From: Phormidesmis sp.
Lineage (GTDB): Bacteria > Cyanobacteriota > Cyanobacteriia > Leptolyngbyales > Leptolyngbyaceae
DNA length: 64,000 nucleotides
Assembly: GCA_965248535.1 (NCBI GenBank)
Contig: CBDFJR010000002.1
Span: forward strand, 1,632,001 to 1,696,000
Reading direction: 5' to 3'
The notes under the pieces are model-generated. The model had not been told where the DNA came from. It searched no databases and saw only the letters and a list, made by a program, of their open reading frames with translations. Of this stretch, positions 36,905 through 52,852 are shown piece after piece (within the stretch, counting starts at the first letter, position 1; every line of letters begins with the position of its first letter). The translations under genes were made by a program, and so were the position numbers.

Positions 36905-37414
36905 ATGGCTTATCAGTGTGATTTAGGAACCGGGCAGCGGCTTTATCTCGAAAACCGAGGCACCCAGACGATCGTTAGGCTAACCAGTGGCAGCGCTCGA
37001 CAGCAGCAGAGTCAGCAGAGCAACTTTGAAACTGGAGAGTGGCAAACCTTGCCCAAAGTCTTTCGCACGGGCACGGGAATCATTTTGCAAATCGAGTCTG
37101 CCCAAAAGCAATCGTTTCTCAGTTTGCAAGCACAACGCATTGGCACCTTAAGCAGTTTGCCTGACATGACGGGTGCAGAGGTGCTGTCGCTCCAGTCTAC
37201 TGAGGCGATCGCGTCGTCGTTTAAGCCGATGGAGCCAATGCAGCCAATGCAGCCAATGCAACCAATGCAGCCGATGCAGATGACAATGGGCACAATGCAC
37301 ATGCAGATGAGCAGTCCCCAGAGCGCCCAGCGCTTTTGTTCTCAGTGTGGAGAATCGGTGAGAGAGAGCGATCGCTTCTGCTCTCACTGCGGCACCCAAT
37401 TATCAACTAGTTAA
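36905..37414 (+). CDS. zinc-ribbon domain protein with MQP repeats
   Basis: QQQ.Q...F.TG.W, (PMQ)n, FCSQCG...FCSHCG. Confidence 0.85.
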   Translation: MAYQCDLGTGQRLYLENRGTQTIVRLTSGSARQQQSQQSNFETGEWQTLPKVFRTGTGIILQIESAQKQSFLSLQAQRIGTLSSLPDMTGAEVLSLQSTEAIASSFKPMEPMQPMQPMQPMQPMQMTMGTMHMQMSSPQSAQRFCSQCGESVRESDRFCSHCGTQLSTS

Positions 37415-37526
37415 CCTATTGCCGAGGTGACGAGCTGTTAAATAGTGGATGTAATTCTCTTTTTAGATGCGGTCGCCAAACGGCCAAAACCAACGATCGT
37501 GAACCTTCTGTGATTTTAGCTGCTGC

Positions 37527-37600
37527 GCATAACGTTCCCGATCACCGGACACAGACAAACGATAACTTAAATTCGTTCCGGTGCAGCGGGGTTGTTCGGC
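37527..37600 (-). other. integron attC site
   Basis: Minus strand GCCGAAC (R'') ... GTTATGC (R'), 74 bp imperfect palindrome, 21 nt after the GNAT stop. Confidence 0.8.
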
Positions 37601-37621
37601 GGCTGTTGATTGGCTGGAGGT

Positions 37622-38137
37622 TCACTTTGTTTTAGCCTGTAAGAGCAGTTTCATCAGATGCTCATCATAAAATTGACCTTGATTAGAAAAAGCTTCATGT
37701 TCTGTCCCGTAAATGCAGAACCCCAGCGATTTGTAAAGTTGGATGGCAGCGTCTTGGACTGTGACGACCGTGAGATGTATCCTACGCAAGCTAGTATCTC
37801 GTTGAGCACGCACGAGGACTTCGGTTGCCAGTGCTCGTGCGAGACCACGCCGCCGAAAGTCAGGTCTAACATAGAGTCCAGCAATAAAACCACGATGCTT
37901 TTCATTCGCTTCTTCAAAACGTGAAAAGCGGATGGTGCCGACAAGAATTTCAGCCGAAAAAGCTCCAAGAATATATGTATCTTCAGATTCTTGGAGACGT
38001 AAAGCCATTGCTTCGAGTGCGAGCTTTTCTTCCTTTTCGGCTAGGGTGCCGAATGCAGGTGGTTGCTCACGCAATGCAGCCAAACGGAGTACTCGATATT
38101 CTTTTACGTCTGCGGGTGCAAGTGTTCGTATTGTCAT
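37622..38137 (-). CDS. GNAT N-acetyltransferase (gene cassette)
   Basis: LYV.PDFRRRGLA acetyl-CoA motif, A..LYKSLGF; bounded by GTTCGGC core site and attC. Confidence 0.9.
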   Translation of the reverse strand: MTIRTLAPADVKEYRVLRLAALREQPPAFGTLAEKEEKLALEAMALRLQESEDTYILGAFSAEILVGTIRFSRFEEANEKHRGFIAGLYVRPDFRRRGLARALATEVLVRAQRDTSLRRIHLTVVTVQDAAIQLYKSLGFCIYGTEHEAFSNQGQFYDEHLMKLLLQAKTK

Positions 38138-38182
38138 ACCCTGCCCTAAATTATATCAAACATGACAATACTGTGCGTAGCA

Positions 38183-38260
38183 GCCGAACTATTGGATATA
38201 CGGAAACTTTCCGTATATCTCCCTAATTTGAGCAGATACCCCGAAGCTTTCCGTATATAG
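38183..38260 (-). other. attI-like site 1
   Basis: GTTCGGC core complementary to the cassette's attC R''; adjacent perfect 12-bp inverted repeat GATATACGGAAA-C-TTTCCGTATATC and a third TTTCCGTATAT. Confidence 0.55.
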
Positions 38261-38348
38261 CCCCTCACTTTTCATCAGATATCTTAGAGCAACGATCGCC
38301 CCCTCTCTTCCCAAAACCCGATCGCTTCCTTCTCTTCAAAATTCAGCC

Positions 38349-38377
38349 TTCCAAAAAACAAAAAACTCTTGTACAAT
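38349..38377 (+). promoter_or_regulatory. putative sigma70-type promoter of the module
   Basis: TTCCAA-17 nt-TACAAT. Confidence 0.5.
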
Positions 38378-38474
38378 ACACCGCAGTGATGGAGTTGTGC
38401 CCCGAAGTCTGATGTGGCTATCAGACTCCGAGGACTTCCATCCCTAGTTACTACCGATAACTCAGGAGGCGTTC

Positions 38475-38594
38475 ATGATTGTACACCGTCAGCTTTGCTA
38501 TGGGATCTTGAAAGGCTGGAATCAAGATCCTGCATACAGTTTTCCCCTCAACCGAATTTCTGAGCTATCAGAGTTTTTGTCCTCTTTGAATTAA
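38475..38594 (+). CDS. 39-aa leader peptide, copy 1 (MIVHRQLCYGILKGWNQDPAYSFPLNRISELSEFLSSLN)
   Basis: AGGAGG SD 5 nt before ATG; frame and length conserved in copy 2; below the ORF-track cutoff. Confidence 0.65.
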   Translation: MIVHRQLCYGILKGWNQDPAYSFPLNRISELSEFLSSLN

Positions 38595-38611
38595 TCGAGA
38601 GGACAAAAAAC

Positions 38612-38983
38612 ATGGCAGTTAGGACGATCGTGCCTAGCTCGATTTCGTTCACCATTGAGTTACGTTGCTCAATCGAAAAGCGTTATCGGGTGAGTGTGAC
38701 TTTGGATTTGCAAGAGCGTTATCTCTTTGTGTCGTCTGGCATTGTTTCGGATGTTAGCGACTGCATTGAAGAGTTCGTGTCTCAACTGAGTGAAATTTCA
38801 TCCAATCAACTAGCATTGCTGAAATGGGATGGCACGAGTGATTTGACGACCGAGTATCAGATTGTTCGAGTGTTGCCCGGTTATCAAGTAGAACGATCGC
38901 TTGTGAAGTTCAACATTGTTCTGGGCGATGGTTCATTAATTCAAGTAGAGGAATTGCACAACAAAACGACGATTCAACTGTGA
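38612..38983 (+). CDS. hypothetical protein, 123 aa, copy 1
   Basis: GAGG RBS; 8 aa differences from the copy at 45164, with many silent changes. Confidence 0.8.
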   Translation: MAVRTIVPSSISFTIELRCSIEKRYRVSVTLDLQERYLFVSSGIVSDVSDCIEEFVSQLSEISSNQLALLKWDGTSDLTTEYQIVRVLPGYQVERSLVKFNIVLGDGSLIQVEELHNKTTIQL

Positions 38984-39341
38984 TTAGGGTTGGGGAGCCG
39001 TCGATTATCTTTTGGGAATCTGTGCAGCCAGCGATCGGGCAACTTCTCGGTCTAGGTCTAATTCAAACTCTGATATTCCCCATTTTGGCGGCTCTCTAAC
39101 TCTGTAAATCTTTAGGGAATAAAGCGATCGTGTCTCCTTTAGGGCGCTAGATAATTCACCCTCTGTTGCGAAATGCCCGCAAATGGCACAAATTTTTAGG
39201 AATCAGAACACTAAGACTCATTCAGGTTGAGTCTGCTGGTGTTAAATGCCCTTGCCAAGGGTGGCTTGACCGATATCTCAATAATTCGACCCTCAGATGG
39301 ATGGTAGCTTGTGCTCTCAACGTCCATGACCATAACGGTTA

Positions 39342-40071
39342 GTCGCCTCAAGGGGTAGCGTTTCCTCTGTTTTGGCATCTATTAGACAAGCGGGGTAACT
39401 CGAACACGCAAGAGCGCTTTGATCAGTGGGTCGAGTTTTTGTGCGTCTTTGCACCCGAAGACATCGCTTTTTTGACCGCAGACCGAGAGTTTATTGGCAC
39501 CCAATGGTTTGCCTTGCTAATGGCAGAGCCTGTGACTCGCTTTCGCATCCGTATTCGCGAGTCGGAGTTCCTGTTTGATGGGCAGCAATCGCTTAAAACC
39601 ACGATTGTGTTTCAAGATTTGCAGCCTCATCAATCCAAGGTGCTGTCACGCAAACGACGGCTTTGGGGGCATTGGCTTTACTTGGCAGGATTACGACTCG
39701 AAGACGGGTCGTTGCTGGTGGTTGCCACGAACCATGAACCCTCCACTGCCATTGCTGACTATGCTCTGCGTTGGGGCATCGAAACCTTGTTTGGCTGCTT
39801 GAAAACTCGTGGCTTTTGCTTGGAGGCAACCCACCTTAAAGACCAGGAACGGCTCAAGAAGCTCATCGCTCTCTTAACCTTGGCATTTTGCTGGGCGCAT
39901 CGGGTTGGCGAATGGGTGGTGGAACGTCAGCCCATTCAAATCAAAAAGCATGGACGCAACGCCAGGAGCATCTTTCGTACCGGGTTAGATCACCTCCGCC
40001 AGATTTTACTCAACCTCGATACTCGTCAAGCGCAGTTTGTCCAAGTTCTAAAACTTTTGTCCTGTACTTAG
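39342..40071 (+). mobile_element. IS4-family element, 5'-truncated
   Basis: QGVAFPL.W..L.KRGNS remnant, ADREFIG, Y..RW.IETLF..LK..GF.LE; ends ...LSCT stop. Confidence 0.85.
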
Positions 40072-40108
40072 AACCTGGATACGGTCGGCTCCAATGCGAT
40101 CGTTAGCT
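40072..40108 (-). other. half attC site truncated by the IS4 element
   Basis: Minus CCAGCTAAC-GATCGCATTGGAGCCG is the exact complement of the cassette core GTTAGCTGG at 40933-40941. Confidence 0.6.
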
Positions 40109-40212
40109 GGAGGACGCACTGCTCTCTCCCCAATCCCATCTGACAGGTAACCTCGTGGGCAGTGTCGGAAGGTAGATTGCTGTCTAAGCGTTTTTGAGTA
40201 CCACAAACAACC

Positions 40213-40755
40213 TTATTTTGCGATTTCTAGTTCGACAGATCGGTAGAACTCTTTCACATGTTTAGGCGACTGAAGATGATATACTCGCTTGCTTTCCTTA
40301 GCTTTAGTCACGTATTCTCGATACTTTGGAGTGAGCTTCTTATTGCACAGCCAAACCGTATAATAACTGTTTAGCGTACCCTTCAAGAGCGGACTATTCT
40401 TGGGCCAGTTTTCTGGTGGAACTAGAAAGCCCTTCATGAATCGCTTCGTTACCCACCAATAGTGCTGGAGAACTGGCATATCCAAATAAACTAAGGTGTC
40501 TGCAACCTCCAGTCGTTCCCATACCGTATCCAACGATCCATATCCATCAATTATCCATTGGTCTTGCTGGAGGAGTTGATCATGAGCAGCTTTATAGTCT
40601 TCGTAGGGAACTTCGCTACCGCCAGGTTTATACTTCAGAAGGTCTAAAGCAACCATAGGCAAACCTGTCATTTCTGTTAAACGTTTGCTGAGCGTAGACT
40701 TCCCGCCTCCAGCATTACCAAATACAGCAATTTTATTCACGGTCATCTCCTTCAT
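40213..40755 (-). CDS. P-loop kinase-like protein (FlaR / DNA topology modulation family), gene cassette
   Basis: GNAGGGKST, WIIDG.G, ADT.VYLD. Confidence 0.85.
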   Translation of the reverse strand: MKEMTVNKIAVFGNAGGGKSTLSKRLTEMTGLPMVALDLLKYKPGGSEVPYEDYKAAHDQLLQQDQWIIDGYGSLDTVWERLEVADTLVYLDMPVLQHYWWVTKRFMKGFLVPPENWPKNSPLLKGTLNSYYTVWLCNKKLTPKYREYVTKAKESKRVYHLQSPKHVKEFYRSVELEIAK

Positions 40756-40934
40756 GAATGTTGCTTTAAACTACTCTTTAGCAATGAACTTTTACGGTCT
40801 AACTTACGGTACGTTGATAAGCTATTTCAGTGTCTGAAACAGATTCCAAGTGCTGTAACCCTTATGGGTACTTCTGGATCATTGGTGACAATGGCAGGTA
40901 CATACAAGGCTGCGCCTACACGAATGCCTCAGCC

Positions 40935-41017
40935 AGCTAACGTTCCGGTTGAGCGGCAGCAGATTGACCACGACGATAGACGCAAAGACTCTCAACTGCC
41001 CGCTCCAATCGGGTTGT
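40935..41017 (-). other. attC site interrupted by a group II intron (remainder at 43016-43020)
   Basis: Plus AGCTAAC-GTTCCGGTTGAGCGGCAG...CTGCCCGCTCCAATCGGGTTGT|TATGC; removing the intron restores GTTATGC. Confidence 0.8.
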
Positions 41018-43015
41018 GTACGCCCAGCATGGGCGTGAACTAATGGGGTGAAAGTCCCCTGGAGGAGAACCAGCGCCCAAATGATCCCAAAAGATCCGAG
41101 TGGTGATCACTCCTAGCTCAAGGCAAGGGCGTTTCCGTGAGGGAAGGTCTGAAGGAAGCCAGCGGCAAACCGACGAGCCGACGAACAGAAATGTCATAGA
41201 AGGCTGAGACCCCTGGGTGAGGAGCGCACAACACAACGAAACCTCTGGTTCAAGGGGCACAGTAAATGACACGGTTGCGGCGGGACAGTTCACGGTCTTA
41301 TCTGGGGAGGTCTGTGCGGTTGCGGTCTTAAAGATCATGGGAGTCTGACTGAGGTCTCGCGGGAAACGGCGAGGGAGCCACAGAACCCTAACGTCAAAAG
41401 ACAGCGCCCTGAAGAGTAATCTCAAGGGTTCACCGTACAGAAGTCAGCAGAGTCCATAGTAGTTTCCTTGTGAAACGAAGGGACGAACATGAACGAACTA
41501 AGGAGGAGCGATGAACAACTCAGACCCATCGATGAACCCGGATGGGGGAGATGGGGTTTGGCGTTCGGACAGAGAGCCAGCCTTAGACAACCTGATGGCG
41601 CGAATCTTAGAGCGCGACAATGTTCAAGCAGCCTGGAAACGGGTGCAGTCAAACAAGGGTGCGCCCGGTAGCGACGGGATGACCTTAGAAGACTTTCCTG
41701 CCTACGCCCGCGAACATTGGCAAGAGATTCGCCAGTCCTTACTCGATGGCAGCTACCAACCACGTCCTGTACGCCGGGTAGTGATTCCCAAGCCGAGAGG
41801 CAAGGGAGAGCGGAAATTGGGGGTTCCTTGTGTCATAGACCGAGTGATCCAGCGACAAGCCATCTTACAAGTGCTCACGCCAAGGGAAGCGGAAATTGGG
41901 GGTTCCTTGTGTCATAGACCGAGTGATCCAAGCCATCTTTGCTCACGCCAATCTTTGACCCAAGCTTTTCTGAGTCAAGCTATGGCAGCCGACCCCAGCG
42001 TTCGGCTCATGGAGCAATCCAACAGGTGAAAACGATTGTAAAAGCTGGATATCGTGTTGTGGTCGATTTGGATCTGGAGAAATTCTTTGATACCGTCAAC
42101 CATGATGTTTTGATGTCTCGTGTTTCCCGGAAAGTCACTGATAAAGTGCTTTTGGGGTTAATCGGTCGTTACCTGCGAGCCGGAGTGTTGGTCGGGAACA
42201 CCGTTGAACCGACCGACTGGGGAACCCCGCAAGGGTCTCCCCTTTCACCCCTGTTGTCGAATATCCTTTTAGATGATTTAGACAAAGAGCTAGAAGCGCG
42301 AGGACATCGGTTTGTTCGTTACGTGGACGACCTGGTTATTCTGGTCAAAAGCAGACGAGCAGGGCGACGGGTGATGGCGAAAATCAGCCGTTATTTGACC
42401 CAAACCCTCAGGCTCAGAGTCAATCGGGAAAAGAGTCGAGTGGTCAAGATTGAGGATTTGAATTACTTGGGATTTACGTTCCGAGGGATTCGCATTTTCG
42501 TCTGCCAGCAAGCTCTGCAAGACTTCCAGCATCGATTGCGCGGGTTAACCTCGCGCAGTTGGGGAGTCTCAATGTCAGAGCGTTTCGTGCGCTTGAACCG
42601 ATACTTACGGGGGTGGATGAACTACTTCGGCATTTCTCAGCACTACACCCCAATCGCAGAGCTAGATGGTTGGCTCAGGCGACGCATTCGCATGTGTTAC
42701 TGGAAACAGTGGCGCAGACCGAGAACGCGCATTGCTAACTTGCTCAAGTTGGGAACCAGTAAGCGTCATGCGATTTTGACCGGCATTAGTCGCAAAGGCT
42801 TTTGGCGTTTGTCAAAGACTCTCGCAACGCAAACGGGAATGACGAATGAGTGGTTAGAACAACAGGGATTGTTATCGATTCGCCAACTCTGGATGAAAGT
42901 ACAGGGTTACGCTTAAGTGATCAGCGTTGTTTGCGCGTCTTCATGAACCGCCCATTGCGGACCCGCATGATGGGTGGTGTGGGAGGGGAGAGTTAAATGC
43001 TCTCCTCGACCCGAT
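41018..43015 (+). mobile_element. group IIC intron (attC-targeting type)
   Basis: 5' GTACGCCCAGCATGGG; short domain V GAACCGCCCATTGCGGACCCGCATGATGGGTGG near 42945; DVI ending CCGAT; inserted at TTGT/T. Confidence 0.88.
41511..42916 (+). pseudogene. ltrA: group II intron reverse transcriptase/maturase, frameshifted by an internal duplication
   Basis: NKGAPG.DG, R.LG.P...DR.IQ, GTPQGSPLSPLL.NI, RYVDD, maturase X domain, no endonuclease; split at 41800-41950. Confidence 0.85.
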
Positions 43016-43291
43016 TATGCGTTGCTCGACACAACCGATCGCGCCCCAACTTCGCCAGACCGCACATCTCAAAAGACGAAGAACTCGGCATTCGCGGACG
43101 GATTTAAATCCTATGCGACCCGTCACCTCCCACTCTCAACGAAGTATCTTTGCTAAAGTCAACACCGATAAGTCGGCGCGATCGTTATAAACCACCTTAA
43201 CTTTCGCACTCACCAACCCGTTCTCAATATCGTTGATACTTAGATTAACGACAACTCTAAAAAACCGTGTTGACAGCTTGTCGGGCTGGCG

Positions 43292-43450
43292 GTCTAACTA
43301 CTATTTCTGCCGTTTGAACTCCTATCAAACAGGATAAATGCCTCTCTCAGAGAAATTATGCTGTATGCAAACCGGATAACTCCCATTTTTTTAGGAATTA
43401 TCCTGAATTCCCACAGGATAACTCTCCGATTTCGGGTAATTATACGGAAT
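43292..43450 (-). other. attI-like site 2
   Basis: GTTAGAC core site; upstream repeats CAGGATAA, CCGGATAA, TTATCCTG, TTATACGGA related to site 1. Confidence 0.45.
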
Positions 43451-43656
43451 GGCGCTCAGACTTCTCGATTCTAGGGGAGCCGTGAGTAAATTGTCTCGTT
43501 CCGATGAATCAGTCATGGCGCTGAGTCGATCGCATCCCTGCCGTTGCTCGACTGGAACATAAATCAGGGAGAAGTTACGATCGCCCCCCTCTCTTCCCAA
43601 AACCCGATCGCTTCCTTCTCTTCAAAATTCAGCATTCCAAAAAACAAAAAACTCTT

Positions 43657-44916
43657 GGGCACCTCGAAAAATTTGCCAAGAGGAGTCTTAACGTGAGACA
43701 AGTGTGAGATCATAGTTATAGAGCAGTGATGGGGCAATTGCAATGACACAGCCTGGATTTTGGGATTGGGAAACGCGCCAAGATAAGCTGAACCAGAAGC
43801 AAGACTTACTGGTGCGACTCAATGAGATTGTCCCCTGGGAAACTTTTCGCCCCTTGCTCGAACCCATTCATGACAAACCGCGCAAGAGTAATGCTGGACG
43901 CAAGCCGATGGATGTGATTGTGATGTTTAAGCTGCTGGTGTTGCAACAGTTGTACAACATTAGTGATGAAGCCTTGGAGTATCAAGTGAGTGACCGCTTA
44001 TCCTTCATGCAGTTTCTCGATTTTGGGTTAGCAGATGAGGTTCCAGATGTAACAACGGTATGGTTGTTCCGTAAGCAGTTAACAGAGCAAGCATTAATTG
44101 AACCATTGTTTGAGCAATTCGATGAGTATTTGATTCAGCAAGGCTACGCAGCTCAAGGAGGACAAATTGTCGATGCTACATTGATTCCCGTTCCCAAGCA
44201 GCACAACAGCAAGGATGAGAATCAACAGATTAAGCAAGGAGAGATTCCCCCATCGTGGCAAGACAACCCGCATCAACGTTCTCAGAAAGATAGCGATGCT
44301 CGATGGACGAAAAAGGGGGGTAAGAGCTACTTCGGCTACAAAGATCACATCAGCATTGATGCCCAACATGGGTTGATTCGTCAGTATGCTGTGACCGATG
44401 CCTCGGTTCATGATTCTCAAGTTTTGGGTCAACTCCTCGATGACGACAATGAGAGCGACAAGATTTGGGCAGATAGTGCTTACCGCGCTGAAGCAATTGA
44501 GGAAACGTTGAAGTTGATGCAGTTCGATAGTCAGATTCATGAGCGGGGATATCGCAACCGCCCGTTAACGGAAGAACAGAAGCAGTCTAATCGCACTAAG
44601 TCCACCACGCGCGTTAAAGTCGAGCATGTGTTTGGGTGTTGGGTGATGCAGATGGGTGGCAAACTGCTGCGTTCGATTGGCATTCAGCGGGCAACGGCAC
44701 AATTGGGATTGAAGAACTTGACCTACAACTTGTTGCGGTACACCTTCTTGGAAACGAAAGCAGTCGGTTAAGAAGTGGGAGCAGGAGTGATCTTGAATGG
44801 AGCCTGGATGAATCAATATTGCTCAGGTGAATGAGGGAGAAGCGATAGGCTTACATAGCTCTCTTCAGTCTCATTTGAGATCCTGATTCGCTAAAAATCA
44901 ATTAATCGAGGTGCCC
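43657..44916 (+). mobile_element. IS5-family insertion sequence, complete
   Basis: TIR GGGCACCTCGA...TCGAGGTGCCC; TSD TCTT (CTCTTG if the ends are 1 nt shorter); empty site present in module copy 1. Confidence 0.93.
43743..44771 (+). CDS. IS5-family transposase
   Basis: VDAT, DARWTKK, FGYK.H, ADSAY, R.KVEHVFG. Confidence 0.95.
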   Translation: MTQPGFWDWETRQDKLNQKQDLLVRLNEIVPWETFRPLLEPIHDKPRKSNAGRKPMDVIVMFKLLVLQQLYNISDEALEYQVSDRLSFMQFLDFGLADEVPDVTTVWLFRKQLTEQALIEPLFEQFDEYLIQQGYAAQGGQIVDATLIPVPKQHNSKDENQQIKQGEIPPSWQDNPHQRSQKDSDARWTKKGGKSYFGYKDHISIDAQHGLIRQYAVTDASVHDSQVLGQLLDDDNESDKIWADSAYRAEAIEETLKLMQFDSQIHERGYRNRPLTEEQKQSNRTKSTTRVKVEHVFGCWVMQMGGKLLRSIGIQRATAQLGLKNLTYNLLRYTFLETKAVG

Positions 44917-45026
44917 TCTTGTACAATACACCGCAGTGATGGAGTTGTGCCCCGAAGTCTGATGTACCAGATCAGAACTCCGAGGACTTCCATCCCTAGT
45001 TAGCGTTCATAACTCAGGAGGCGTTC

Positions 45027-45146
45027 ATGATTGTACACCGTCGGCTTTGCTATGGGATCTTGAAAGGCTGGAATCAAGATCCTGCATACAGGTTTTACCC
45101 CAACCCAATGTCTGAGAGATCCGTGTTTTTGTCCTCTTTGAATTAA
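45027..45146 (+). CDS. 39-aa leader peptide, copy 2 (MIVHRRLCYGILKGWNQDPAYRFYPNPMSERSVFLSSLN)
   Basis: AGGAGG SD; same length and frame as copy 1. Confidence 0.65.
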   Translation: MIVHRRLCYGILKGWNQDPAYRFYPNPMSERSVFLSSLN

Positions 45147-45163
45147 TCGAGAGGACAAAAACT

Positions 45164-45535
45164 ATGGCAGTTAGGACGATCGTTCCTAGCTCGATTTCGT
45201 TCACCATTGAGTTGCGTTGCTCAATCGAAAAGCGTTATCGGGTGAGTGTGGTTTTAGATTTACAAGAGCGTTATCTCTTCATGCCCTCTGGCATTGTCTC
45301 GGATGTTAGCGACAGCATTGAAGAGTTTGTGTCTCAACTGAGTGAAATCTCGTCTAATCAACTAGCATTTCTAAAATGGGATGGCACGAGTGATTTGACA
45401 ACCGAGTATCAGATTGTTCGAGTGTTGCCCGGTTATCAAGTAGAACGATCGCTTGTGAAGTTCAACATTGTTCTGGGGAGTGGTTCATTAATTCAAGTAG
45501 AGGAGGTGCCCAACAAAACCACCATCCAACTCTAG
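45164..45535 (+). CDS. hypothetical protein, 123 aa, copy 2
   Basis: Paralog of 38612-38983. Confidence 0.8.
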   Translation: MAVRTIVPSSISFTIELRCSIEKRYRVSVVLDLQERYLFMPSGIVSDVSDSIEEFVSQLSEISSNQLAFLKWDGTSDLTTEYQIVRVLPGYQVERSLVKFNIVLGSGSLIQVEEVPNKTTIQL

Positions 45536-45689
45536 AACAGTTGGGGTTAGGGAGTCGATTGTTCTTTAATGGATCGTGAAACAACCTGTTTGATCAACGC
45601 ACTTGCACCCAAAGCGGGTTCATCACTGGTTCCTTTATGGTCGCCCGGCTCCCTAACGGAAGACACGATCGTCAACCATACACACAACA

Positions 45690-45952
45690 AACTACGGCAT
45701 CGGGCACCTGGAATGCAGGTTTCACCCTTCAGTAAAAGATTTGCGGCTGCCGAAACTGCGGCGACCCAAGAGCGAGAGCGGCAAATTTTGCTGCCCTACC
45801 CAAGAGGATTGGGGAATCTGGTCAATTGGCCGTGCTGCCTCTATGGGACAGGACTGTCGCTGCGGGACTTGCAAGAAGCGTTATATTTTCTGATTAGGTC
45901 ATGTTTTGTCGCGCAGTGCCCTGAATCAAGTCACTCTTGCCGTTCAAAATGA
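45690..45952 (+). pseudogene. IS256-family transposase fragment
   Basis: R..QIL..Y.RGL...LY..GLSLRDLQEAL remnant; boundaries approximate. Confidence 0.6.
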
Positions 45953-46218
45953 AATTGGAACGTTCCCTCAAGAAACCAGTTGCTTGACGGTGTTTTTTCT
46001 AGTGATGGAGCGAGATCATGCTAAATACGACCGCAAATCCACGGCGAAAAATTCATGACACTCACGAAATTCCATCATGAGAATTGCCGATCGCTCGCCC
46101 TTCAGAAAAATCTTGTGTCCATGATCTGAGACAATATTTGGATTAAACCCGGCAGTTTGTGGACTCGATTTCAAGAACGATCGTCTACCTAACCATACCC
46201 ATTTTGGAGGACAACCCA

Positions 46219-46530
46219 ATGACTATTAGTGTAATTGCAGCGATCGCTTACGGCATTCTCTCGATCGTAGGCGGCTTAATTGGCTATGCCCAGGCCAAAA
46301 GCAAAATCTCATTGATTGCAGGGGTAGCTAGCGGCATTTTATTAATGGTGGGTGGCGTGTTGGTTGCTCAAGGTCAAACAGCCGGGTTGATTTTATCGGC
46401 GGTTGTGACGATCGTGCTCATCGTCGCCTTTGGCGTGCGGTTGGCAAAAACGCGCAAATTCATGCCAGCCGGGTTGATGCTCGTGTTGGGAATCCCAGTG
46501 TTGGCTTGTGTGGCGGGTCAACTCCGCTAG
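46219..46530 (+). CDS. TMEM14 family small membrane protein
   Basis: YG....GG..GY..AKS..SL.AG, KFMPAG; GGAGG RBS. Confidence 0.9.
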   Translation: MTISVIAAIAYGILSIVGGLIGYAQAKSKISLIAGVASGILLMVGGVLVAQGQTAGLILSAVVTIVLIVAFGVRLAKTRKFMPAGLMLVLGIPVLACVAGQLR

Positions 46531-52361: not shown

Positions 52362-52682
52362 CTATGGCTTGGTAGGAGTCTCTTTCTTCATGGCATCGCC
52401 ATCCTTTTTCATTGCGTCGCCTTTCATCGCATCGCCATCTTTTTTCATTGCGTCGCCTTTCATCGCATCACCATCTTTTTTCATGGCATCGCCCTTCATC
52501 GCATCACCTTTCATCGCATCACCTTTCATGGCACCACTAGCTGGAGATGCACTAGCCGCCGGAACACTAGAGGCTGGGCTAGGAGCCGCTTGTTGTTTGA
52601 CTTCAGGAGTGCTTGAACAAGCAGCTAGACTTGCCATCAACGCAAAACTTGCGACTGAACCGATCATTTTCCAATTCATGTT
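52362..52682 (-). CDS. methionine-rich lipoprotein with MXKDX-type pentapeptide repeats
   Basis: Lipobox LAAC; about 9 (G)DAMK(K) repeats; start approximate. Confidence 0.8.
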   Translation of the reverse strand, partial: NMNWKMIGSVASFALMASLAACSSTPEVKQQAAPSPASSVPAASASPASGAMKGDAMKGDAMKGDAMKKDGDAMKGDAMKKDGDAMKGDAMKKDGDAMKKETPTKP

Positions 52683-52852
52683 TGTTGCCATCCTGTTCAA
52701 AAACTGTGAATGTTTCTCAATGCTCACAGTATGGCGATCGAGTCTGAGGCGGCACTGAACTTAATCTTGAAGGTTGCTGAATTTTTCTACTAAATGTTCT
52801 CAGGTCACACTCAGGGTTTTCTCAGAAAAGTCTGCTAGCCAGAATTTTGGGA

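Follow-up and report, generated by a model that had tools for sequence, protein, structure and literature searches.

Two leader sequences within the window (the whole stretch of 64,000 nucleotides of Phormidesmis sp. DNA that was analysed) raise the question why RNA hairpins with nearly identical stems should differ almost exclusively in their loops, and whether each leader, lying between two convergent TACAAT boxes, is controlled by an antisense RNA of its own, as the initial annotation had proposed. The elements on which this proposal was built, namely the TACAAT box at 38372-38377, the minus-strand TACAAT box at 38478-38483, the AGGAGG at 38464-38469, the loops of both copies and the extra A in copy 2, were all found in place. 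Both leader copies are real as well, but they do not form a pair: a BLAST search yielded 17 full-length copies of the leader in this genome, five on contig C2 and 12 on contig C5, and none on the three small contigs. Each leader belongs to a cassette of ~0.7 kb, in which promoter, hairpin 1, hairpin 2, AGGAGG, a 39-codon leader ORF, hairpin 4 and an ORF for 123-124 aa follow each other in this order, and which is usually closed by a 3′ stem-loop (present after most copies). The leader ORF is intact in all 17 copies, the 123-124-aa ORF in 16 of them. What had not been noted initially are the leader ORF, the 123-aa gene presumably coupled to it, the number of copies and the setting among integrons. 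The features of copy 1 and its upstream region are the following:

37527..38137, minus strand: GNAT acetyltransferase gene cassette (gene at 37622-38137; Pfam PF00583)
37527-37600, minus strand: attC-like site of the GNAT cassette (crude attC scan)
38186..38263, no strand: attI-like palindromic repeats, integron platform without integrase; the repeats recur 5′ of the intact integrase G000:C2:1131581-1132543
38349..38377, plus strand: sense promoter with -35 TTCCAA (38349-38354), 17-nt A-rich spacer and -10 TACAAT (38372-38377); predicted start near 38384
38355..38471, minus strand: predicted antisense RNA of about 105-120 nt with putative ends, based on minus-strand fold, wobbles and covariation; parts in order are a 5′ tail complementary to the ribosome site of the leader ORF, hairpin 2, hairpin 1 and a U tract
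38388..38442, no strand: hairpin 1, with the hypervariable loop 1 at 38414-38419 (6 nt in copy 1, 7 nt in most copies)
38443..38466, no strand: hairpin 2, with the hypervariable loop 2 at 38451-38457; the base of the hairpin pairs with part of the AGGAGG
38464..38594, plus strand: AGGAGG (38464-38469) and 39-codon leader ORF (38475-38594), whose stop codon is located in the hairpin-4 loop
38478..38483, minus strand: candidate antisense -10 box TACAAT, within codons 2-3 of the leader ORF
38503..38530, plus strand: hairpin 3, located within the leader ORF; structure of the sense strand, its wobble variants being on the plus strand
38574..38609, plus strand: hairpin 4, predicted to conceal the ribosome site of the 123-aa gene (38597-38604)
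38612..38983, plus strand: 123-aa orphan gene, with a predicted soluble beta3-alpha-beta3 fold
38989..39100, plus strand: 3′ stem-loop with variable loop length, right edge of the cassette

In the mechanism proposed here, the sense promoter would give rise to an mRNA comprising the two leader hairpins, the short leader ORF and the 123-aa gene, the ribosome site of which would be locked by hairpin 4. A ribosome translating the leader ORF up to its stop codon in hairpin 4 would free this next ribosome site. The convergent promoter would produce an antisense RNA of ~110 nt, whose two 7-nt loops would kiss the matching loops of the mRNA; its 5′ tail would then cover the ribosome site of the leader, so that both ORFs would be switched off. 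The loop pair would thus be the recognition code of each copy. As a copy with the loops of a resident one would be silenced by the antisense RNAs of the other copies, selection may favour new loop codes. We infer the transcription of both RNAs, the kissing, the block of the leader, the coupling and the copy specificity, and consider the combination of antisense control, coupling and copy specificity likely, with a toxin role of the protein left aside. By analogy, the predicted switch most likely follows the logic of CopA-Tap-RepA and Sok-Mok-Hok.

A genome scan resulted in 66 named loci, of which 57 had enough upstream sequence and were used and nine were dropped. Together with the 17 copies of the genome itself these are 74 cassettes, and both loops could be parsed in 71 of them. 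The stem tests include 64 sequences (67 alignable ones minus three with deleted or replaced 5′ parts). The family was present in three of 301 genomes of the class and in nine of 90 genomes of the taxonomic family, including all seven others of the genus; among 401 genomes of the phylum the genome of the window was the only carrier. A profile search against 1.84 billion representatives yielded 15 hits, and the repeat-rich profile hits P0124 and P0134 were taken as spurious on inspection by eye. A second lineage consists of four copies, one in G097 and three in G714 (two of the three being broken); two of 57 genomes in the taxonomic family of G097 were positive. In G097 and G714 the order of the parts is identical to that of the Phormidesmis cassette at ~47% protein identity. 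The layout is kept there, the stems have other sequences and the loops are again different. The Phormidesmis genome is rich in HIP1.

Among the 17 copies of this genome, the per-site diversity amounts to 0.52 in loop 1 and 0.63 in loop 2. The 123-aa gene, at its 32 four-fold sites, has a diversity of 0.28, the stems of hairpin 1 have one of 0.029, and the ribosome site plus the first 21 leader codons one of 0.008. The loops are about twice as diverse as synonymous sites and about 20 times as diverse as the hairpin-1 stems, in agreement with the initial description of differences being concentrated in the loops. An even spread of substitutions over stems and loops, which would have spoken against the initial proposal, is clearly not seen. 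The 20 copies of ULC007 exhibit a similar picture (loops: 0.51/0.67; four-fold sites: 0.32; hairpin-1 stems: 0.07; ribosome-site block: 0.035). When 14 sites were drawn 100,000 times from the 32 four-fold ones, no draw reached the mean per-site loop diversity of 0.574 observed among the 17 copies. Even the 12 closest gene pairs, being only 4-5% apart, differ at 6-11 of 14 loop positions in 11 cases and at four in the remaining one. The drift of the loops is not neutral; in both genomes their divergence outpaces that of synonymous sites.

In the 71 parsed cassettes 31 alleles were found for loop 1 and 47 for loop 2. The loop pair is unique in each of the 16 parsed copies of the own genome, with none of 120 pairs of copies having both loops in common, and ULC007 contains 19 distinct loop pairs among 20 copies, i.e., a single repeat. 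A shared loop 1 was observed in three and a shared loop 2 in one of the 120 pairs, and in CBDICO in seven and one of 36 pairs, respectively. Alleles are reassorted across genomes, with up to five and six partners, one loop-2 allele having six; in 15 groups of loci with a common right flank both loops are identical in only two. The idea of copy-specific antisense RNAs needs to be divided: wobbles, fold and the conserved antisense -10 box argue for the RNA, whereas the predicted lack of cross-reaction may be incomplete, as three of the 120 pairs share loop 1 and one shares loop 2.

Constraint is seen at positions 1, 2 and 6 of the loops. YU is found at positions 1-2 of loop 1 in 20 of 26 antisense alleles and 18 of 26 sense alleles; of the 45 antisense alleles of loop 2, 34 have U as their second base. 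A YUNR U-turn is present in 14 of 26 alleles of antisense loop 1 (shuffle mean: 1.9) and in 15 of 45 alleles of antisense loop 2 (shuffle mean: 4.0). YUNR loops are described as general in loop-loop antisense systems in PMC4485353. The allele UUGGUAG, present in five of 71 cassettes, equals the loop of two ColE1 RNAI hairpins (NC_001371, Rfam RF00106). As judged from their sequences, the loops show a kissing-loop pattern.

The strand on which the hairpins are formed was addressed by wobble pairs and folding. Read on the sense strand, two fixed and four common polymorphic positions of hairpin 1 are A·C combinations; on the antisense strand all six are G·U wobbles. The reverse case, a wobble on the sense strand, was not found in hairpin 1 apart from rows of 1-4 sequences. 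Counted over both lineages, the hairpin has 77 G·U cells on the antisense strand and a single one on the sense strand. In all 64 copies the minus strand of the leader folds more stably than the plus strand (mean -35.0 vs. -23.3 kcal/mol), and the fold z of copy 1 is -4.5 for the minus and -1.7 for the plus strand. In 24 aligned sequences 99.8% of the hairpin-1 cells are paired, compared with 29-49% in slid controls. Compensatory pairs over the two lineages were observed for five of 20 pairs of hairpin 1, a count which was matched by 24 of 500 shuffles and comes mostly from one lineage split; as alleles and copies are related, such shuffle counts overstate. The top stem of hairpin 1, which alignment folding had not recovered, was left out of the covariation test because the two lineages are misaligned by one column there. 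An Rfam search of 37500-46500 yielded only group II intron domains and no family match for the leader at E up to 5. Relatives of the cassette, with the whole cassette covered, were found in four RNA-labelled runs, the contigs of which have no strand and may hold DNA; their shares are small (0.06-0.11), and the start of one contig at 38385 is too weak to use. The strand bias of the wobbles, the stability of the fold and the conservation of the antisense -10 box point to, and support, a predicted minus-strand RNA.

The two boxes of the sense promoter are separated by 17 nt in 63 of the 64 copies aligned, with TAGAAT as -10 box in 39 and TACAAT in 20 of 64 copies, and G097 has a canonical TTGAC-/TATACT promoter at the equivalent position. 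As a generic promoter and terminator scan of 38150-39100 gave no site at all, both promoters rest on conservation and not on a consensus match. Of the 73 cassettes that include the 3′ end of the leader, 71 have TACAAT as antisense -10 box, one has TACAGT and one TACAAG; TAnnnT is retained in 72 of 73. In both cassettes with an exceptional box the sense promoter is broken, too. The second lineage has TAAGAT in all four copies at an unchanged distance to the predicted antisense start. The convergent promoters proposed initially are upheld with regard to the conserved -10 box, but not by the consensus scan, and the antisense promoter has no recognisable -35 box, which counts against an antisense switch. 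The same applies to the position of the antisense -10 box, since the surrounding 73 nt hardly vary in any case (diversity 0.008).

The U tract follows ~22 nt past hairpin 1 and does not adjoin a hairpin, and the 3′ end of the predicted antisense RNA has no canonical terminator. The tract is missing from copy 2 and from two of the four second-lineage copies. The minus-strand T tract of the initial annotation adjoins copy 1, but not copy 2, in which an IS5-type element lies between the -35 box with the T tract and the -10 box:

43635..43651, plus strand: -35 box and A tract of copy 2, separated from the -10 box by the insertion sequence
43658..44915, plus strand: IS5-type element within the sense promoter of copy 2 (Pfam DDE_Tnp_1 and DUF772; inverted ends; CTCTTG duplication)
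44922..45035, no strand: leader of copy 2, with sense -10 box (44922-44927), AGGAGG (45016-45021) and antisense -10 box (45030-45035)
44964-44970 and 45003-45009: loop 1 and loop 2 of copy 2
45027..45657, plus strand: ORFs of copy 2, i.e., leader ORF (45027-45146) and 123-aa gene (45164-45535), followed by the 3′ stem-loop (45546-45657)

With regard to their state, 61 of the 73 cassettes are whole, four lack the ORF alone and eight lack the sense promoter. None of the 65 cassettes with an intact sense promoter has a broken antisense -10 box. This pattern of decay also fits a simple constraint, because the antisense -10 box overlaps the first codons of the leader ORF. The 12 nt at 38487-38498, after the start of the leader, are identical in both lineages, synonymous sites included; they may belong to a promoter or serve as a contact site of an RNA.

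Codons 22-34 of the leader ORF are near neutral (pN/pS of 0.99 in the own and 0.66 in a second genome), as expected if what counts is the passage of ribosomes along the leader and not the peptide it encodes. An equivalent leader ORF of 30-31 codons exists in the second lineage, which also has the layout of a leader stop codon in hairpin 4 and a paired ribosome site of the 123-aa gene. For this ribosome site an unpaired probability of at most 0.02 was predicted by folding. The core pairs of hairpin 4 are retained in at least 61 of 64 copies, with wobbles mixed between the strands. Hairpin 3 has another sequence in the second lineage and forms the same hairpin at the same position. The ribosome site of the leader itself is predicted to be paired even without the antisense RNA, which counts against the proposed switch.

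Other explanations for the hairpins have to be weighed against antisense control with coupled translation. It appears improbable that no antisense RNA exists at all and that the hairpins are a structure or sensor of the sense leader, whose loops drift unconstrained. Unpaired loops are commonly the most variable parts of an RNA, both hairpins of copy 1 can form from the sense strand, and the RNA-labelled runs give strandless contigs, all of which would be in line with such a leader. However, the loops are twice as variable as near-neutral sites and yet nested in homogenised stems, stem variants preserve pairing on the minus strand only, three loop positions are under constraint and the leader has no Rfam family. 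With a still lower probability the antisense RNA would act by transcription attenuation (pIP501 type) instead of a translation block. This idea would suit the presence of two loop pairs and, downstream of them, of another two hairpins, and the pIP501 case, also having two loop pairs, is among the references in PMC4485353; against it stand the lack of a conserved U run after hairpin 3 or hairpin 4, the lack of a called terminator and an antisense tail that directly covers the ribosome site of the leader.

The least probable of the readings considered takes the leader as a guide RNA, as a single-stranded DNA recombination site (bridge-RNA- or attC-like) or, similar to type III toxin-antitoxin systems, as a protein-binding RNA with loops matched to variants of the 123-aa protein. 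It would be in agreement with the integron neighbourhood and the GTT triplet in hairpin 1, and attC bottom strands, too, have a G·T bias confined to one strand. Yet, the structure is preserved where no integron is near, and the GTT triplet is no crossover point, as the sequence is conserved on its two sides. Moreover, the loops match their own cassette or its 150-nt flanks no better than those of other copies (16 comparisons, largest gap: 0.26 nt), and loops as guides or pseudoknot partners were rejected. Loop distance does not track protein distance either: of four Mantel tests against gene or protein distance three were null and one was weak (93/2000), and a co-variation of loops and protein was rejected on these tests.

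The 123-aa gene is under purifying selection (pN/pS of 0.16 in two genomes). Its product was modelled with a pLDDT of 86.6 as three strands, a long helix and three strands. With a maximum 19-residue hydropathy of 1.06 the protein has no membrane segment, and neither the leader ORF nor the 123-aa ORF contains a hydrophobic segment. No significant hit was obtained in Pfam, NCBIfam, PHROGs and PADLOC, and no toxin or defence match in searches with family and defence models. Foldseek gave no match in PDB and BFVD at E 0.001, a wide fold search reached a best Z of 4.3, and there was no usable Atlas hit. The Sak annealing protein was rejected as a fold relative, its Z of 3.3 lying within noise. A longer fused form was absent among 7,999 candidates (a weak search), and no match was found in viral contigs, phage records and 72,556 plasmid records or, in two scans with distant members, in metagenomes. 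The complex prediction of integrase and 123-aa protein gave no answer (score 0.00) and speaks neither way. According to the model, the protein would be soluble, with a confident structure that lacks a fold match.

Provided that the proposed mechanism is correct, a toxin is the likeliest job of this protein, with a probability slightly below even, and the copies would then be independent addiction modules. Layered repression and the decay pattern of the cassettes suggest such a role. Type I toxins are, according to PMC5367252, mostly small hydrophobic proteins of narrow range. As a toxin of the Hok, Ldr/Fst, Ibs or TisB type the protein does not qualify, having no hydrophobic segment and no Pfam or NCBIfam match. 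The main rival to the toxin role is a role in mobility, for which the genomic setting needs to be considered.

An intact integron integrase (TIGR02249, 466 bits vs. a cut-off of 265) immediately precedes one copy of the own genome, and the second integrase of the genome has no cassette behind it. At the same place, 58 other loci include five full integrases, one frameshifted integrase and five remnants (55-95% identity). Repeats similar to attI were found 5′ of 12 of the 17 own copies, a count that is partly circular because the pattern was drawn from the very upstream sequences. A first attC detector was too strict and gave one site; a second, crude one placed attC-like sites upstream of six of 17 own copies, vs. 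seven of 120 random windows, and downstream of none of the 17 own copies and of none in a set of 53. Five own copies and the second lineage exhibit no sign of an integron. With its own promoter and no attC downstream the cassette is, as far as can be told from sequence, not itself an integron gene cassette. It does not resemble an insertion sequence or MITE either, with no terminal repeats, target duplication or transposase match, and the right junctions of 23 loci lie 43-252 nt past the stop codon without a shared end. Plasmid replication control is not indicated: all 17 copies are on two large contigs, with neither an Rfam nor a plasmid match.

With the antisense switch being the same, the 123-aa protein might aid the spread or recombination of the cassette or of the integron platform. 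New loops would then evade repression by resident copies, and an incoming copy would gain a burst of expression; this alternative concerns the role of the protein and not the RNA. Plasmid incompatibility and the multicopy inhibition of IS10 are parallels for such an escape from repression. In its favour, sites are mostly unshared: of 51 mapped flanks of relatives, nine were within 6 kb of an own copy and seven of these nine on the matching side, i.e., at a site occupied in the own genome. As so few flanks are at occupied sites, most sites are polymorphic. Also, integrases of 55-95% identity carry the cassette directly behind their stop codon, with cassette proteins being more than about 77% identical, and the alleles of both loops are reassorted. 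On the other hand, 23 junctions lack terminal repeats, a target duplication and a fixed right end, no recombinase fold was matched (no Z of 5 or above among 48,161 chains) and the second lineage has no integron link. A mobility role is rather unlikely.

Among known systems, leader-peptide coupling is described for CopA/CopT-Tap-RepA of the IncFII plasmid R1, RepY-RepZ of IncI1/IncB and RepR-RepA of IncI2 (PMC8053102). The cassette resembles the former in a cis-antisense RNA of ~100 nt against an mRNA leader, a leader peptide and a coupled downstream gene, all of which are predicted here. Unlike CopA/CopT it is chromosomal and multicopy, its target is an orphan of 123 aa without a plasmid match, and it has neither a loop-to-downstream pseudoknot match nor an Rfam match. 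In hok/sok/mok and ldr/rdl/ldrX the antisense RNA acts via an upstream ORF needed for translation of the effector (PMC4147584); a (predicted) dependence on an upstream ORF and several chromosomal copies are common to these and the cassette. The cassette protein is, in contrast to Hok and Ldr, soluble and no short membrane peptide, and the leader ORF ends before the gene. According to PMC2943612, five Sib/Ibs pairs of E. coli are told apart by two variable regions, and one region alone still represses. As either region suffices there, copies of the cassette sharing one loop may cross-react. As in Sib/Ibs, the paralogous cis-antisense RNAs of the cassettes would be distinguished by a pair of variable recognition regions, of which one carries a YUNR loop. 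Unlike these five copies, they number 17 to 21, both codes are 7-nt loops of leader hairpins, alleles are common to several species and reassorted, and the protein is unrelated. ColE1 RNAI/RNAII is similar in an RNA of ~108 nt, in 7-nt kissing loops and in the identical loop allele. RNAI, however, blocks a replication primer, whereas the cassette has a translated leader as putative target, two hairpins and no Rfam RNAI match. Loop changes create compatibility groups in ColE1, and diverged loops permit but do not guarantee compatibility or orthogonality (both from PMC9458437). Integrons, In0 elements and CALINs are similar in that many copies follow an integrase or attI-like platform with opposite-strand cassettes. 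In contrast to integron cassettes, the unit is located on the far side of the integrase.

No paper on this cassette or on such an antisense-controlled cyanobacterial module was found among the matches listed for the open-licence literature. Mechanisms of this class have been described before. Not known to us from print are the protein family, the number of copies, the combinatorial code of two loops and the association with integrons. As a tentative overall reading, which is rather doubtful as a whole, the cassette may be a selfish chromosomal element that multiplies via new two-loop antisense barcodes, each switch controlling a protein with a new fold, a toxin or a mobility factor. If true, a genome would contain dozens of mutually orthogonal RNA switches, with alleles pooled and reshuffled across species, and incompatibility-group evolution would take place inside a chromosome. 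The cassette would also be a candidate for an antisense-controlled addiction module in cyanobacteria and would stabilise integron platforms after the loss of the integrase, possibly being the reason why the genus retains many platforms without one. Cross-talk among duplicated antisense modules has so far been studied in families of about five copies. As the 71 cassettes combine 31 and 47 loop alleles with a fixed scaffold and a loop divergence measurably above that of synonymous sites, they permit direct tests of the rules behind the orthogonality of kissing loops and of selection in favour of new specificities. They would further be a ready set of predicted orthogonal RNA switches native to cyanobacteria, and the protein, with its confident model and no fold match, a new family.

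Several minor observations concern the surroundings of the copies. The region 37527-45657 consists of two integrase-less platforms in tandem, with a cassette at the end of each and differing attI-like sequences (38186-38263 vs. from about 43290). Between the platforms, a fragment at 39140-40071, which we take to resemble an IS4-type transposase, has parts that recur at two other places of the genome. A gene for DNA topology modulation (FlaR-like; below the NCBIfam cut-off) at 40213-40755 is positioned like an integron cassette. Upstream of copy 2, among opposite-strand cassette-like genes, a group II intron (Rfam D1-D4) extends from about 40910 to 43015, whose RT ORF is in pieces, with a 52-nt duplication at 41800/41879; it is probably attC-targeting. 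In ULC007 (L070:1014-3481), a block of 2.47 kb plus the cassette is found where the own genome has 8 bp; its left junction is at a GTTRRRY-type site, and it includes two gene pairs that presumably resemble type II toxin-antitoxin pairs. On contig C5, the copy at 1266442 follows an apparent tRNA 3′ end and precedes an IS200/IS605-like pair, and attI-like repeats near 2090530 are without a cassette, which the relatives L036 and L062 carry there. Finally, short-period coding repeats are present at 52362-52727 (GDAMK-type repeat protein) and 37215-37277 (PMQ repeat).
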